Shown here one piece after another: positions 20,027 to 25,372 of a stretch of 64,000 bases of DNA. The notes beneath the pieces are model-generated. The model was given only the letters and a program-made list of their open reading frames with translations, did no database searches and was not told where the DNA came from. The DNA lies in contig JBHLQH010000015.1 in assembly GCA_048884965.1 (NCBI GenBank), positions 1 to 64,000 on the forward strand. Direction: 5' to 3'. The position numbers were made by a program, and so were the translations under genes. Position 1 is the stretch's first letter. The number at the start of each line of letters is the position of its first letter. Origin of the DNA: Candidatus Thorarchaeota archaeon (GTDB lineage Archaea; Asgardarchaeota; Thorarchaeia; Thorarchaeales; Thorarchaeaceae).

Positions 20027-20150
20027 GGTTTGTCACCAGTTTCCTTCATACGAAGTTGCTTGTCCCCGGTCACTCTAAGGAAGTGAAGAAACTCCTTATG
20101 AGATAATCTTGTGTATTATATAGGAAAGAGAGAAGTTCGATTCTATAAAA

Positions 20151-20347
20151 GAGATGTTGGGAAACGGAACCACCTAAGTGGCCCCGCATCCGTGGATTGC
20201 CTTCGTCTTGAGCGCATGGAAGAAATCAATTATGCGCAAGTTGGGAATTACTTCCCGGGGACCAATGCGTAGAAACTCTTTAGGGACCGTAAACCGTGTG
20301 TGTTGCGAATGCGAGTTCCTATGACGGGGGATCCATGTACTCAACAC
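20151..20347. ncRNA. Candidate structured RNA (unknown family)
   Basis: Terminal helix 20155-61/20340-46 enclosing at least four nested helices; no credible CDS. Confidence 0.45.
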
Positions 20348-20462
20348 AGTCGGCAAGAATGAAGGAGTTTTTCCACATATGAACCTTCCTAGTTTGCAAA
20401 ATAACGAAAGGAACCACTATAAACTGGAATAAGTTCGACAAGACCAATGCGATCTGATGCAA

Positions 20463-21623
20463 TTATCTTGGAAAATTGTCGCGTAGTAAACGTAGGTGTT
20501 GATGAACCATTTCCATGAGTCGAGAATCATCAGGAGTCTTTTCTAACTCGGTCACAAGTGTGCTGAGAAAATACTCAGGGAAGAATAGCCGTACTCGAAT
20601 ATCATTAAGAAGGAATAACCACTTGTCATACTCACCAGAGGCACCCTTCCGTCGTTTCTCTGAAACGATTCGGAATTTCTTCAAAAGTTGAATTGCTTGC
20701 TTGAGTTCTTTTGGCGGGATACCAAGTGTAGCTTCGAGCTCAGAGATGTTTGTTGGTTGGCGTCGAAGCACACTAAGAGTGTCATACGCATCCGGATCGG
20801 CAAGGATTTCTGCAACCGCAACCGTATCTTCAGGTGTCTTTTGCCATTCGGTTAGAAACTCAAGGACTTCGGTCTTGTACTCTGCAGTAAGCTCAGGATC
20901 AAGAACAGATGCCGCGGATTCCATAGAAACCAATGGGGGTGCTCTGAATATCTCAAGATCCTTGATCATAAAAACACAGGTCCTTCCGATTTCATCAACC
21001 CATTCTGTCTTAACTAGACCCAGCTCTTCAAAAGGAGCAAGAATTGAATCGACACTAACACTTGGGAGTCCTGTTACCATCTTCAGCCATTCTTCAAGGT
21101 CCTCCTTCGTGATGCCACCTTTCCAGAGTTTTGGAAAGACTGCTCTAGACACCTCATCAGAGAATAGACGAGCAAGTCGAGACTCATCTGTCATTCCAGC
21201 AAGGCGGATGATTCTCCGATAGGTATTGTCAAGTTCTGTTTGCAACTCAGCATCAGTCATTGAAACTACTGCATTCGTAATCGGAGATACGACAGAGGTG
21301 ATCGCAGCTTCGTAAGTCTTGGCATCCTCAGATGGAGTGAGAAGAAGAGAGATACAATATTGCTCTTCCTCACGAACGATCCCTGTGTAGTAGGAGGCGA
21401 CATTATACTCCTCCCCACCAATCCTAACACTCAAGGACGAGAATCCGGCTGTCGCATCACCCATTGCGTGTGATGTGAATATTCTCATTATTTCCGTGTT
21501 CAAGTCCTCACGGTAATAATCTGCAAAATCATTAGGTACCTTTGCTTTTAGAACGGCACCAATTTTTGAGTCCCAGTCGATTAGTAGCATTGCGACAGGC
21601 ATTTTCCATTTCTCCGGTCCCAT
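20463..21623 (-). CDS. uDENN/longin-like domain protein with C-terminal winged-helix domains
   Basis: LLIDWDSKIGAVLKAKVP resembles the uDENN F(D/H)xxxGP start; NISELEATLGIPPKELKQAIQLLKKFRIV is wHTH-like. Confidence 0.6.
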   Translation of the reverse strand: MGPEKWKMPVAMLLIDWDSKIGAVLKAKVPNDFADYYREDLNTEIMRIFTSHAMGDATAGFSSLSVRIGGEEYNVASYYTGIVREEEQYCISLLLTPSEDAKTYEAAITSVVSPITNAVVSMTDAELQTELDNTYRRIIRLAGMTDESRLARLFSDEVSRAVFPKLWKGGITKEDLEEWLKMVTGLPSVSVDSILAPFEELGLVKTEWVDEIGRTCVFMIKDLEIFRAPPLVSMESAASVLDPELTAEYKTEVLEFLTEWQKTPEDTVAVAEILADPDAYDTLSVLRRQPTNISELEATLGIPPKELKQAIQLLKKFRIVSEKRRKGASGEYDKWLFLLNDIRVRLFFPEYFLSTLVTELEKTPDDSRLMEMVHQHLRLLRDNFPR

Positions 21624-21737
21624 CTAATTGGCTTGCGAGGAGCTATTCAATGATACGGTTCTATTAGTGCGCCTAAAAAAGCTTGTCACTAGCCAATTCG
21701 CTTTTCAGTGGATGAGTACTGAAAATCGTTACCACGG

Positions 21738-22397
21738 TTACTTTTCCGTTTCTTGCTTTTCTAGTATATATGTGTGTATGGTTTTGTACACAAATTCCAC
21801 TACTTGTTCCAGGTCCTGCTTGGCATCAACAACCACATAATTCCCAAGGTCCTGCTCAGACATTTCAAGATAAGCAGCTCGAACCAGGACCAATCGCTCA
21901 TATTGCTCAAATTGCTCATTCTTCTCTGCCCTGCTTCCGAATACTCTTGAGAGACCTTCATCTGCAGAGATGTCTAGAATGAAAATGATATCAGGTTCCG
22001 GGGCATCGATATCTTCTCGATTCTTGCGAAGTATTTCTTGCCAAGGAAGTCCAGTGCTTGTACATTGATAGGCACCTGTAGCGAAGAAGTATCGATCCAT
22101 AAGAACCACTTTTCCGGATTCTAGGGCAGGCAGGATACGATTTTGAATGTGCCAATGACGGTCCTTGATGAACAGATCCAGCTCCTCAGCTGGAGAAAGC
22201 TCACCTCGCGGAGATCTTTCTCTAATCTCTCGCCCCCAAGGACTTTCACTAGTTGGCTCTCGCAATCTGACAACATCAAAGGATTGCTGCATCAAGAGAA
22301 CTTCTACGAGGTCACATACTGTGGTCTTCCCAGCACCATCGATTCCCTCAAGAACGAAAAGATACCCTGGATGTAGCCTTGTGCCTTCTATGTTCAA
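21738..22397 (-). CDS. tmk: Thymidylate kinase
   Basis: EGIDGAGKTT, REP, DR..H, MDRY, PD..FILD. Confidence 0.95.
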   Translation of the reverse strand: MNIEGTRLHPGYLFVLEGIDGAGKTTVCDLVEVLLMQQSFDVVRLREPTSESPWGREIRERSPRGELSPAEELDLFIKDRHWHIQNRILPALESGKVVLMDRYFFATGAYQCTSTGLPWQEILRKNREDIDAPEPDIIFILDISADEGLSRVFGSRAEKNEQFEQYERLVLVRAAYLEMSEQDLGNYVVVDAKQDLEQVVEFVYKTIHTYILEKQETEK

Positions 22398-22540
22398 TTA
22401 GATAGGTCTCCTCAAAGATAGGATAGATGAATCTCAAGTGACTATGTTTTAGATGCTTCGGTGCTCTTGGATGCATTTGAAGCGTGAGAATAAGACTCGG
22501 ATAAACCTCTTATACTCTTACACATCCGTAAGAAATGCGT

Positions 22541-22738
22541 CAGGGGAACTTTGGACGTGGGACAAGAATGGGAGATGGAATCAATTCGATTCTAGGGTGA
22601 ATATTCGACCGGATACATCCCATGTTTGAAAAGACTGCGAAAGCGATAAAAAGATCGCATTTCGTCATACCCGTTTTTGGGTCTAAGGTCCCCTTGCAGA
22701 GTTCTCGTATCCGGTCGATTCACAAATCACCTTCTTTT
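22541..22738 (+). ncRNA. Candidate riboswitch-like or pseudoknotted structured RNA
   Basis: P1 22541-56/22681-96; P2 22553-62/22618-27; hairpins 22638-64 and 22669-82; perfect 12-bp crossing helix 22605-16/22707-18; G-U pairs favour + strand. Confidence 0.55.
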
Positions 22739-22773
22739 ACAGCGGCGGGAAGAGTTATATTCCCATTTGATTC

Positions 22774-22813
22774 GTAGGACAACATATCCTAGAGTAGGAT
22801 AACATATCCTAGA
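22774..22813. promoter_or_regulatory. Two tandem 17-bp palindromic operators (TAGGAYAACATATCCTA, 20-bp period)
   Basis: gtaggacaacatatcctaga-gtaggataacatatcctaga, between a TATA-like TTATAT (22755-60) and the RBS GAGGTGA. Confidence 0.75.
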
Positions 22814-22828
22814 AGAGAGGTGAATTAG

Positions 22829-23365
22829 ATGCGTTGGAAGATTTCGATTCTTGTAATCCTTCTAGTCATTTCAAGCATCCCAATCAGTAGCGGGATAGAG
22901 GAAGGTACACATGAACGAGCGTACTTCAACCTCTCTGATACAGTGAATCTTGAAATCGATTTTGGAAATGGGACTGTTACTCAATTCACTGACGCGAACG
23001 GAACGAATGTGCTAGAAGCCACTGAATCAAAGGTGAATGTTGTCGTAGAATGGTATGGCAACCTTGCATACGTTGTGGAGATAGCTGGTGTCCATAATGA
23101 TGGTATAGCAGGACTCTATTGGCAATACTGGATCAATGGGGATAGAGCACCGTTTGCGGCAAATCAAATGGATGTTAAATCCAATGATTCAATAGAATGG
23201 AAACGAGTCCCTTCTACATTTACCGACACAGACACCACTGTTACAACACAAATCGATACTGATTTGATTCTGGGGTCTCTCATTACAGTAGTTTTGGGTC
23301 CAGGATTTCTAGGATTTCTATACGTAATTAAGATTAGGAGATCGATTGATGAAGAACATAGTTAG
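22829..23365 (+). CDS. DUF4430-like (transcobalamin C-terminal-like) membrane-anchored solute-binding protein
   Basis: Signal peptide, IDFGNG, YVVEIAGV, YWQYWING...A, D.IEW, C-terminal TM. Confidence 0.8.
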   Translation: MRWKISILVILLVISSIPISSGIEEGTHERAYFNLSDTVNLEIDFGNGTVTQFTDANGTNVLEATESKVNVVVEWYGNLAYVVEIAGVHNDGIAGLYWQYWINGDRAPFAANQMDVKSNDSIEWKRVPSTFTDTDTTVTTQIDTDLILGSLITVVLGPGFLGFLYVIKIRRSIDEEHS

Positions 23366-24092
23366 GATTTTACCAATTTTGATACTGCTAATTCTGGTTA
23401 TACCAGCTAATGCCGCAGGGAATTATAGTAGCATACTTGACCCGACACCGTTTGGAAATACAACAATCAGCTGGCGTATTGTTGATGCTCCTGATGTGCC
23501 ATTCAGTTTCTACTGGGCAGGAACGGAGATCTGGTTAGCTGAGCCAGAAAGCTTGATGTCATTCACAATTCAAGAGGTGAGTAATGACATTCTTGGCGAA
23601 CTAATTCTCGGGAATGCCACTCTGATAGGAAATGATACAGATATTGCTAAAGACCTGACTTTAGGAATATGGGGGATTACTGAGTTCCATCCAGGATTGA
23701 TTATCGAGATTTCAGATTCAAAAATAAATGAGCTTAATCAGACAGCTTTTGCTTCAGCAGAACGAGTTTCAGGAAACTACCTTAATGGTACCATTGATTC
23801 CTCATATGAAGAGATTACTATCTTTGGGTTGCCATACAGTTGCATCACGTTCACCTATGTACAAGACGATTCGGGATTTGGGAGTCCTCAGAGAACATAT
23901 CTAGCTTATGATGTAAACACAGGAGTCCTTGTCCAGGCAAATACGACCTACACATTTACAACTCCATATTCATTGGTACTGGAACTGAATGATGTTGTTA
24001 CACCTTTAGCCATCGGACCAATGATATTGGTTGGCTCTGGATTTGCTGTCATAGCTGTGATCCTAGTACTTCGGTCAAAGATGAATCGGTGA
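23346..24092 (+). CDS. Secreted, C-terminally anchored hypothetical protein
   Basis: Signal peptide, several NxS/T sequons, YDVNTGVL, C-terminal TM followed by basic residues. Confidence 0.75.
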   Translation: MMKNIVRILPILILLILVIPANAAGNYSSILDPTPFGNTTISWRIVDAPDVPFSFYWAGTEIWLAEPESLMSFTIQEVSNDILGELILGNATLIGNDTDIAKDLTLGIWGITEFHPGLIIEISDSKINELNQTAFASAERVSGNYLNGTIDSSYEEITIFGLPYSCITFTYVQDDSGFGSPQRTYLAYDVNTGVLVQANTTYTFTTPYSLVLELNDVVTPLAIGPMILVGSGFAVIAVILVLRSKMNR

Positions 24093-24715: not shown

Positions 24716-25372
24716 ATGGAAGGAGCTTGTGATAGTTTGTCGTGGCAAAAAGAGATTCGTCATATCGCTCAGCCTGCAGATGGAAGAGTTGCGCCAACAT
24801 TCGGTCCACACCATGTAGCAGTTGCGATCACCATGATAGGAAGGGAACAACCCCTTGGCCGATATGAACTCTGTGAGAGGATGTCTATGGGGGAAGGTAG
24901 TGCTCGAACCCTTCTCAAACGACTCAGAGAATCCAATTACATCATGGCGGAAGGCAAGCAAGGTCAGAAGCTCACTGAGAAGGGGTTGTCTCTTTTCAAT
25001 AGGATTACCGCAGACGTGCCAATTGGTTTGTCCTTGATATTGGGCGATTTAGTGGTTCATGAGTTTTCGTTTGCTCACTTGGTACGGAGAAAGGCAGCAA
25101 GGGTGACTGATGGAATTCGACAGCGGGATGAGGCTATCATTCAAGGAGGATCGGGAAGAGCTGGAGCGACTACATTGATACAGAAGAACGGATTACTTCT
25201 TATGCCGCCAGATGGATTCAATATTCTTCTCGAATATGAAGATGAAGCCCTACTTATTGCAGAGAGCTTGAGAGTAGAAGATGATGATGTTGTAGTCATA
25301 GGATCAGCTGATGATGCGAACCTAGCTAGAGAGGTCTCAATGGCTGCAGTTATGACTTTATTCGAGGACTGA
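24716..25372 (+). CDS. wHTH protein with DUF4443-like C-terminal domain (putative regulator)
   Basis: PLGRYELCERMSMGEGSARTLLKRL; GIRQRDEAI..G..GATTL. Confidence 0.8.
   Translation: MEGACDSLSWQKEIRHIAQPADGRVAPTFGPHHVAVAITMIGREQPLGRYELCERMSMGEGSARTLLKRLRESNYIMAEGKQGQKLTEKGLSLFNRITADVPIGLSLILGDLVVHEFSFAHLVRRKAARVTDGIRQRDEAIIQGGSGRAGATTLIQKNGLLLMPPDGFNILLEYEDEALLIAESLRVEDDDVVVIGSADDANLAREVSMAAVMTLFED

Follow-up and report, generated by a model that had tools for sequence, protein, structure and literature searches.

The locus described here raises the question of whether an intergenic element in the genome of an Asgard archaeon is a regulatory leader of the operon that follows it or the product of a gene of its own. 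The element lies in the window, i.e., the 64,000-nucleotide stretch that was analyzed (contig JBHLQH010000015.1 of a Candidatus Thorarchaeota archaeon), where a divergent intergenic spacer at 22398–22828 separates the genes for a thymidylate kinase and a DUF4430 protein. A first-pass annotation had described a pseudoknotted RNA of ~200 nt in this spacer and had read it as an aptamer plus expression platform, of an undescribed class, for the DUF4430/ECF operon downstream; a stand-alone Asgard ncRNA was the other option that it offered. In bacteria, DUF4430/ECF S-component genes are often controlled by riboswitches. The comparative analysis reported here disfavours the riboswitch reading for this operon and points, with somewhat better than even confidence, to a clade-specific structured ncRNA of a new family, transcribed independently from its own gene. 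The locus is made up of the following parts.

21738–22397, minus strand: thymidylate kinase gene (tmk; Pfam PF02223, E = 5.6e-39)
22503–22516, plus strand: promoter-like element of the RNA, the TATA-like box TTATAC (22510–15) preceded by an A-rich stretch
22537–22738, plus strand: the RNA itself, ~200 nt, with both ends presumed from sequence motifs
22724–22738, plus strand: 3′ tail with the pyrimidine/U-rich tract CUUCUUUU, the likely termination region
22755–60, plus strand: TATA-like box TTATAT of the operon, outside the RNA and conserved in relatives
22775–91 and 22795–811, plus strand: palindromic operators TAGGATA-N-TATCCTA, outside the RNA and conserved in relatives
22829–23365, plus strand: DUF4430 gene (PF14478), with its ATG at 22829
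24716–25372: wHTH-DUF4443 gene of the window

The TTATAC box lies ~25 nt 5′ of the first conserved nucleotides of the RNA. It had been pointed out in the first-pass annotation, and a TATA-like box is indeed kept in all homologues: by eye, an A-rich BRE-like stretch and a TATA-like octamer recur at a constant upstream distance, and the sequence around the octamer is unalignable between homologues. As judged by eye, this is a conserved, presumed promoter of the RNA's own, at the proper distance for an independent ncRNA gene. At the other end, the previously noted tract CTTCTTTT is located at 22731–38. In the window's genus (g1), the RNA is followed by pyrimidine-rich tails that contain short U runs, and no clear U-tract was found between the RNA and the operon's promoter in genus g3. 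The runs containing window positions 22300–23000 are seven sediment/soil DNA runs, with no RNA run listed.

Other conserved features occur nearby. On the tmk side of the spacer, a 17–18 nt motif (GTWTTAGATGCTTCGGT, 22445–22462), ~50–65 nt upstream of the tmk start, is kept in most genera of the family, those without the RNA included; it may serve as the promoter of tmk (read as BRE/TATA on the minus strand) or form a small UUCG hairpin. Beyond tmk, a gene for a 386-aa protein (20463–21623, minus strand) has no Pfam match. Its product is 84–97% identical across genera, whereas the thymidylate kinase of the same genera is only 58–70% identical, and judging from these identities the 386-aa protein is under exceptionally strong constraint. 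A second conserved intergenic element lies at 20027–20462 (candidate 20151–20347), between the gene for the 386-aa protein and a longin-GTPase gene. BLAST finds it conserved in g1, g3, g4, g8, g9, and g10, a distribution unlike that of the RNA studied here, and it is undetected by the covariance model of that RNA (R1, described below).

The RNA itself is built from the following segments, where numbers preceded by g denote genera of the family.

22542–22547, plus strand: 5′ strand of the P1 core, AGGGGA, pairing with 22689–22694 and crossing P3 and P4
22553–22562, plus strand: 5′ strand of P2, pairing with 22618–22627 (10 bp in the window)
22577–22593, plus strand: small hairpin (GGAAUC, loop AAUUC, GAUUCU), found in g1 and g7 and absent in g3, g9, and g15
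22597–22616, plus strand: 5′ strand of the long-range closing helix P3, interrupted by a 3-nt bulge at 22602–04
22617–22634, plus strand: conserved junction strand, a C-run UCCCAUGU and then A-rich, nearly invariant within each lineage and including the 3′ strand of P2
22635–22640, plus strand: 5′ strand of P4, CUGCGA, pairing with UUGCAG at 22694–22699 (predicted by RNAalifold)
22637–22665, plus strand: P5 hairpin, GCGA-AA-GCGAU / AUCGC-A-UUUCGU, with the GCGA/UCGU base kept
22669–22682, plus strand: P6 hairpin, ACCCG / UGGGU, a helix kept with differing sequences
22687–22706, plus strand: most conserved segment GGUCCCCUUGCAGAGUUCU, containing the 3′ strands of both P1 and P4 as well as the junction AGAGUUCU
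22707–22723, plus strand: 3′ strand of P3, which covaries with the 5′ strand

All helices described in the first-pass annotation were recovered in place, and comparison with relatives determines how far each of them extends. In the window, P3 comprises a perfect 12-nt complement (22605–16/22707–18) extended by gtgaa (22597–601) and ttcac (22719–23). This complementarity, which had been noticed without being assigned to one structure, is a real helix, with compensatory double changes at 13 of its 17 pairs. In g3, g7, and g9 it is continued outward across an internal loop by a further covarying helix, P0, in which the first 10–12 nt after the short loop pair with nucleotides just 5′ of P3. The pairings that make up P0 include ACUCG/CGAGU, ACGUG/CACGU, and ACGUA/UACGU, together with an AGGCGCC palindrome in g7, and covariation is seen within g3 by itself (CUCG/CGAG, CGUG/CACG, CGUA/UACG). 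In those lineages, the RNA therefore extends further at its 3′ end.

Inside the domain closed by P3, P4 is invariant save for two C-to-U changes that keep a G-U pair; because it is invariant, covariation neither supports nor contradicts it. The hairpins that had been proposed at 22638–64 and 22669–82, here P5 and P6, are both present as conserved helices of variable length and sequence. Most relatives carry an extra inner hairpin in P5, also of variable length and reaching ~40 nt in G008, and P6 occurs as ACCC/GGGU, AGCCC/GGGCU, GGUCCCC/GGGGGCC, or GAUCCCC/GGGGGAU and is absent in g7. The segment GGUCCCCUUGCAGAGUUCU is invariant or nearly so in all homologues, and the other main invariant blocks are UCCCAUGU, ACUGCGA-AGCGA, and CGUUCGUUC. 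In total, ~60 junction nucleotides are nearly invariant across genera with thymidylate kinases that are only ~60% identical.

P1, as originally drawn, joins 22541–56 of the 5′ leader to 22681–96 with 15 of 16 positions paired, including three G-U pairs. The pairing is present, and its core (AGGGGA/UCCCCU, 6–7 bp) can form in all 30 sequences, with 6–11 contiguous pairs possible in each between the leader G-run AGGGGA(Y) and GUCCCCU; the 9-bp outer extension, however, is specific to the window. These pairs were counted on anchored sequences because MAFFT misaligns the leader in some rows of alignment A4, where it is off by one column. Covariation in P1 is minimal because the 3′ strand of its core is invariant. 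The changes that do occur are one double change from C-G to U-A (L088) and several C-G pairs altered on one side to U-G, and an uncompensated internal mismatch is found in three species of the window's genus. In g1 and g9, P1 competes with a local hairpin (CGUCAG-GGGA-CUGACG) that has a compensatory change of its own (CUUCAG-GGGA-CUGAAG). If P1 forms, it is a true pseudoknot, since it crosses P3 and P4, and such a pseudoknot is plausible from the pairings available. The earlier description of a ~200-nt RNA with a pseudoknot is therefore upheld with regard to a conserved, pseudoknot-capable fold, but the P1 pseudoknot itself is plausible only. P2 likewise stands in part. Its 10 pairs exist in the window, and similar pairing is available in most species of g1, but a second G-run equivalent to that of P2 is absent in other genera, and the helix holds only within g1. 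Duplex energies between the leader and the C-run are no better for cognate than for non-cognate pairs.

Folding of the single sequence gave z = −2.04 on the plus strand, where seven of 200 shuffles folded as well, and z = −1.69 on the minus strand. Since these values are only marginally above chance, the structure is not settled by one sequence. Covariation was tested with a model-based alignment of 24 sequences and a nested structure of 30 pairs. Standard pairs are formed in 96.2% of cells as opposed to 33–44% with slid partners, 14 of the 30 pairs have changed on both sides, and the observed covariation, nearly all of which is held by P3, was reached by none of 500 shuffles. Covariation in related genomes, which the first-pass annotation had named as a check on its proposal, is thus borne out. 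The strand follows from the invariant G-U pairs in P4 and P5 and the many G-U pairs in P3, which place the RNA on the plus strand. On this comparative evidence, the element is confirmed as a real structured RNA of the plus strand.

The DUF4430 operon has control elements of its own. A palindromic operator is found just 3′ of a TATA-like box before every copy of the operon examined, whether or not the RNA is present; it is doubled in the window (TAGGAYAACATATCCTA, 22775–22811) and takes the form TAGGATAGGTTAACCTATCCTA in other genera (L047–L051, L071–L075). The same operon and operator occur without the RNA in 10 of 16 genera. In five RNA-less genera, tmk is followed by a ~200-nt spacer, which keeps the same conserved motif on the tmk side, and then by one TATA-like box, the same operator, and the DUF4430 gene; the operon is thus functional in the absence of the RNA, having a promoter and operator of its own. 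In G003, G006, and G004, the DUF4430-orf3-orf4 genes beside the RNA are gone, and the RNA, which still scores 131–157 bits, is followed by the operator and then by a homologue of the wHTH-DUF4443 gene. Complete operon copies elsewhere in these three genomes carry the operator and no RNA. Unrelated genes have also been inserted between the RNA and the operon, namely a PAS-domain gene in G014 and an SBP_bac_5 gene in the G080 lineage (metagenome contig L103), and in G013 the operon and operator are intact where the RNA is broken.

Two observations concern the transporter genes themselves. The second DUF4430-orf3-orf4 locus of G004, G003, and G006 (L073–L075), which continues into a wHTH-DUF4443 gene in G003 and G006, has an operator with the centre GGTTAACC, as in other genera, which suggests that the native transporter genes were replaced by a transferred copy. 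Where the transporter genes are gone, the operator stands before the wHTH-DUF4443 gene alone, which suggests that the wHTH-DUF4443 protein is an autoregulating repressor.

Comparison with known RNAs was made with the 4227 models of Rfam 15. No match was found at gathering thresholds in the whole window, nor at E ≤ 10 in 22350–22850, and for six homologues, drawn from five genera, the sole match was a sub-threshold one to CRISPR-DR10 (24 bits against 39, E = 0.17), which lies on the opposite strand and was rejected as chance. ARAGORN found no tRNA or tmRNA gene in 21000–24000. The view that the RNA belongs to an undescribed class accordingly holds for the window and for the six homologues, as does the first-pass failure to match it to cobalamin, SRP, or RNase P consensus. 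RNase P and SRP RNAs are encoded elsewhere in the genome (on C16, with 157 bits, and on C50, with 84.5 bits, respectively), which disposes of either identity. The archaeal RNase P RNA (RF00373) and SRP RNA (RF01857) resemble the new RNA in being stand-alone, promoter-driven molecules a few hundred nucleotides long that contain long-range helices or pseudoknots; however, they are universal, whereas the new RNA occurs in only six of 16 genera of one family. The cobalamin riboswitch (RF00174) and other riboswitches of bacterial ECF/vitamin-uptake genes share its position upstream of, and co-oriented with, an operon of the DUF4430 + S-component-like kind, as well as a complex fold with long-range tertiary pairing. 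Unlike the bacterial ECF riboswitches, the new RNA is separated from the operon by a promoter and operator, and the operon is common without it. No model match to RF00174 or its AdoCbl variant was obtained at E ≤ 10, and no B12-box-like string was seen by eye in the RNA.

Orphan structured ncRNA motifs found by comparative genomics (e.g., Weinberg et al. 2010, PMC2864571) are similarly intergenic and clade-restricted, with covarying helices around conserved junctions; the new RNA differs in belonging to Asgard archaea (Thorarchaeota) and in having its own archaeal-type promoter. Double-pseudoknot ribozymes (HDV-like, twister) also have a 5′ strand that pairs into a later-closed domain and helices that cross. 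The new RNA is, however, larger than these ribozymes, with a different strand order, no Rfam match, and no evident cleavage site. A hammerhead was rejected, as the string CUGAUGA is present only in some species of the genus, being absent from the window, G004, G001, and all other genera, the strand order is incompatible, and there is no Rfam match. Local readings as a bulge-helix-bulge or K-turn were rejected by eye because the motif is unconserved or its geometry wrong. No Asgard-specific structured RNA family is described in the full-text literature searched, and the RNA family, found in Thorarchaeota, is new both to Rfam 15 and to that literature.

A BLAST search of 40 relatives recovered the element from each of the six other species in the genus, with 74–77% identity over 22571–22732, and the core around 22670–22730 from five other genera of the family as well. 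Covariance model R1, which covers the 3′ two-thirds of the RNA (152 positions), matches 26 of 86 family genomes with E = 1e-11 to 1e-42. The RNA is present in 6/6 genomes of g1 in addition to the window's own, 12/17 of g3 (where the misses are 62–81% complete), 3/3 of g7, 2/2 of g9, the one genome of g15, and the one genome of g8, where the copy is 5′-truncated. The other ten genera have it in none of their genomes, including 0/28 in g6. In sum, six of 16 genera of one family, with records titled Thorarchaeota, carry the RNA, and a laxer search of the 40 relatives (E ≤ 1) gave the same distribution. There is one copy per genome, save for two fragments in one incomplete assembly, and no second copy is detectable in the window's own genome.

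Outside the family, no true match was found in a 151-genome sample of the phylum (125 genomes of 26 other families). A match in G156, from another family (18.8 bits with R1), is a false positive lying antisense inside a small-GTPase ORF. At this locus (L052, G156:C306:2173-2319), the antisense strand of the small-GTPase gene mimics the invariant blocks AAAGACUGCGAUAGC and UUGCAGAGUUC, which serves as a warning on false positives of R1. An exact search of 596 Gb of genomes with the invariant 19-mer GGTCCCCTTGCAGAGTTCT recovered the same set, mostly from records titled Thorarchaeota or Promethearchaeota, and one chance match, in Parachlamydiaceae (11.6 bits). An 18-mer search added six further true copies from metagenomes, the other 15 of its 21 metagenome matches being chance. 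The RNA was not found in viral contigs, and no mobile-element genes were found near it.

A tree made from tmk and the N-terminal half of the 386-aa protein (382 columns) is poorly resolved between genera. Carriers lie on both sides of its deepest split, five state changes are required, and the AU test rejects (p = 0.009) a single gain, under which the carriers would form one clade. The RNA sequences group as the proteins do (g1 + g7 versus g3 + g9 + g15). The simplest reading is that the RNA was present early in the family and has since been lost repeatedly. G013, where an IS-like fragment takes the place of its 5′ half, is most simply read as a loss caught in the act. Just upstream of this truncated RNA (L044, G013:C1) is a 92-aa ORF fragment, ending in YGQRNLVETVFS, that by eye resembles an IS-family transposase. 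In some g3 genomes, both promoters flanking the RNA share CAATGTTTATTA; recombination between them would cleanly delete the RNA, although this is speculation.

How this RNA is to be explained depends on several kinds of evidence, which bear on more than one reading at a time. It is hardly conceivable that the element is a chance structure or a small protein-coding gene. Its modest single-sequence folding score (z only −2.0) and the short ORFs that overlap the region could be cited in favour, but the spacing between two invariant blocks takes all values modulo 3, even within a genus, and no open reading frame is common to all sequences, so that the element is not coding; such a reading is refuted by the covariation and the frame-shifting indels. 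The compensatory changes also weigh heavily on the idea of a decaying relic, e.g., of an old mobile or viral insertion that drifts to loss with no present cellular role. A relic would account for the patchy distribution, with its several gains or losses, for the rejection of one carrier clade on the tmk + orf386 tree, and for the copy broken by an IS-like fragment. Nonetheless, such changes persist, along with the ~60 invariant nucleotides, across genera that have diverged to ~60% identity in thymidylate kinase, and therefore continuing purifying selection is indicated; the single copy per genome, the lack of copies in viral contigs, and the lack of mobile-element genes nearby add to making a relic very improbable. 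The same invariant core could be that of a ribozyme, e.g., one that self-cleaves in the 5′ leader. In keeping with this are the self-crossing fold (P1 against P3 and P4), the many single invariant nucleotides, as in small ribozymes, and the CUGAUGA and GAAA strings of some species. A catalytic RNA is still quite improbable, as no Rfam ribozyme matches even at E = 10, CUGAUGA is missing from the window and from all other genera, the strand order is unlike that of the hammerhead, and nothing marks a cleavage site.

A leader acting in cis is rather unlikely, although it has more to commend it. Transcripts from the upstream promoter would extend past the end of the RNA, into the DUF4430/ECF-type operon or another downstream gene, and a ligand-dependent choice of leader pairings would gate their continuation, as a second control atop the operator. 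In every genome examined, the RNA and the next gene have the same orientation, and in most of them that gene is the DUF4430 gene; the RNA's invariant junctions held by variable helices resemble an aptamer, and its covarying helices are those expected of one; the G-run pairings (P1 or the local hairpin) are mutually exclusive; and in g3 no obvious U-tract precedes the operon's promoter. Read-through from the RNA into the operon is thus possible from the arrangement of the locus. However, a position in the 5′ UTR with an expression platform at a terminator or RBS was not found, as the operon's conserved promoter and operators intervene. In all genomes the RNA ends 90–130 nt before the start codon, with the promoter in between, and therefore could not mask the RBS or control translation, and a repressor bound at the operator would block read-through. 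Nor was a link to related genes found beyond synteny, and constant position within one family may be plain synteny, so that context says little either way. Against a leader stand, moreover, the 10 genera in which the same operon and operator function with no RNA, the relocated operon copies that lack it, its retention after adjacent transporter genes were lost or unrelated genes inserted, and the operon that survives intact beside a broken RNA. The first-pass annotation had stated in advance that conservation irrespective of the downstream operon would tell against a riboswitch and for a stand-alone ncRNA. Such conservation was found; therefore, by that annotation's own standard, its aptamer and expression platform for the DUF4430/ECF operon would count as refuted, and the stand-alone Asgard ncRNA, with its own TATA-like box, is the best fit.

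As a stand-alone gene, the RNA would be transcribed from a start ~25 nt downstream of its own TATA-like box TTATAC, and the transcript would end in the pyrimidine/U-rich tract near 22738. Comparison of homologues shows that the transcript folds as a domain closed by the covarying P3, which is extended by P0 in other genera, and that variable-sequence helices (P3, P5, and P6) hold the ~60 nearly invariant junction nucleotides in place. The G-rich 5′ leader would plausibly pair back into this domain with the invariant GUCCCCU as the P1 pseudoknot, and its alternative pairings (P1 or the local hairpin) would be compatible with a switch too. Most likely, the RNA functions as a free-standing folded molecule or as a ribonucleoprotein, independently of the DUF4430 operon, which would be controlled from its own promoter and palindromic operator, and it appears to be dispensable, having apparently been lost repeatedly within the family. 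Because the core is so invariant, we infer a binding pocket for a protein or small ligand, or a catalytic centre. Such a core seems atypical of a simple antisense seed, and when antisense targets of the RNA were sought within its own genome by short-word BLAST, only chance-level matches of 13–15 nt turned up. As a tentative possibility, and one well short of probable, the core may be a ligand-binding or catalytic centre of a first Asgard-specific riboswitch-like or ribozyme class, acting as a metabolite sensor in trans or as a read-through gate between its own promoter and the uptake operon, beside an operator-binding repressor.

With regard to the biology of the family, the DUF4430/ECF-like operon appears to be controlled by its operator, probably via the operon-encoded wHTH-DUF4443 protein, and not by the RNA. 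Strong covariation and a highly conserved core make the RNA family well supported, and it can now be searched for with a working covariance model. The broken copy in G013 amounts to a natural knock-out, and the RNA is small enough for in vitro probing. Should it prove to be part of a ribonucleoprotein, an unknown accessory machine would be implied for Thorarchaeota; metabolite binding or catalysis by the RNA would extend riboswitch or ribozyme biology to the archaeal relatives of eukaryotes.
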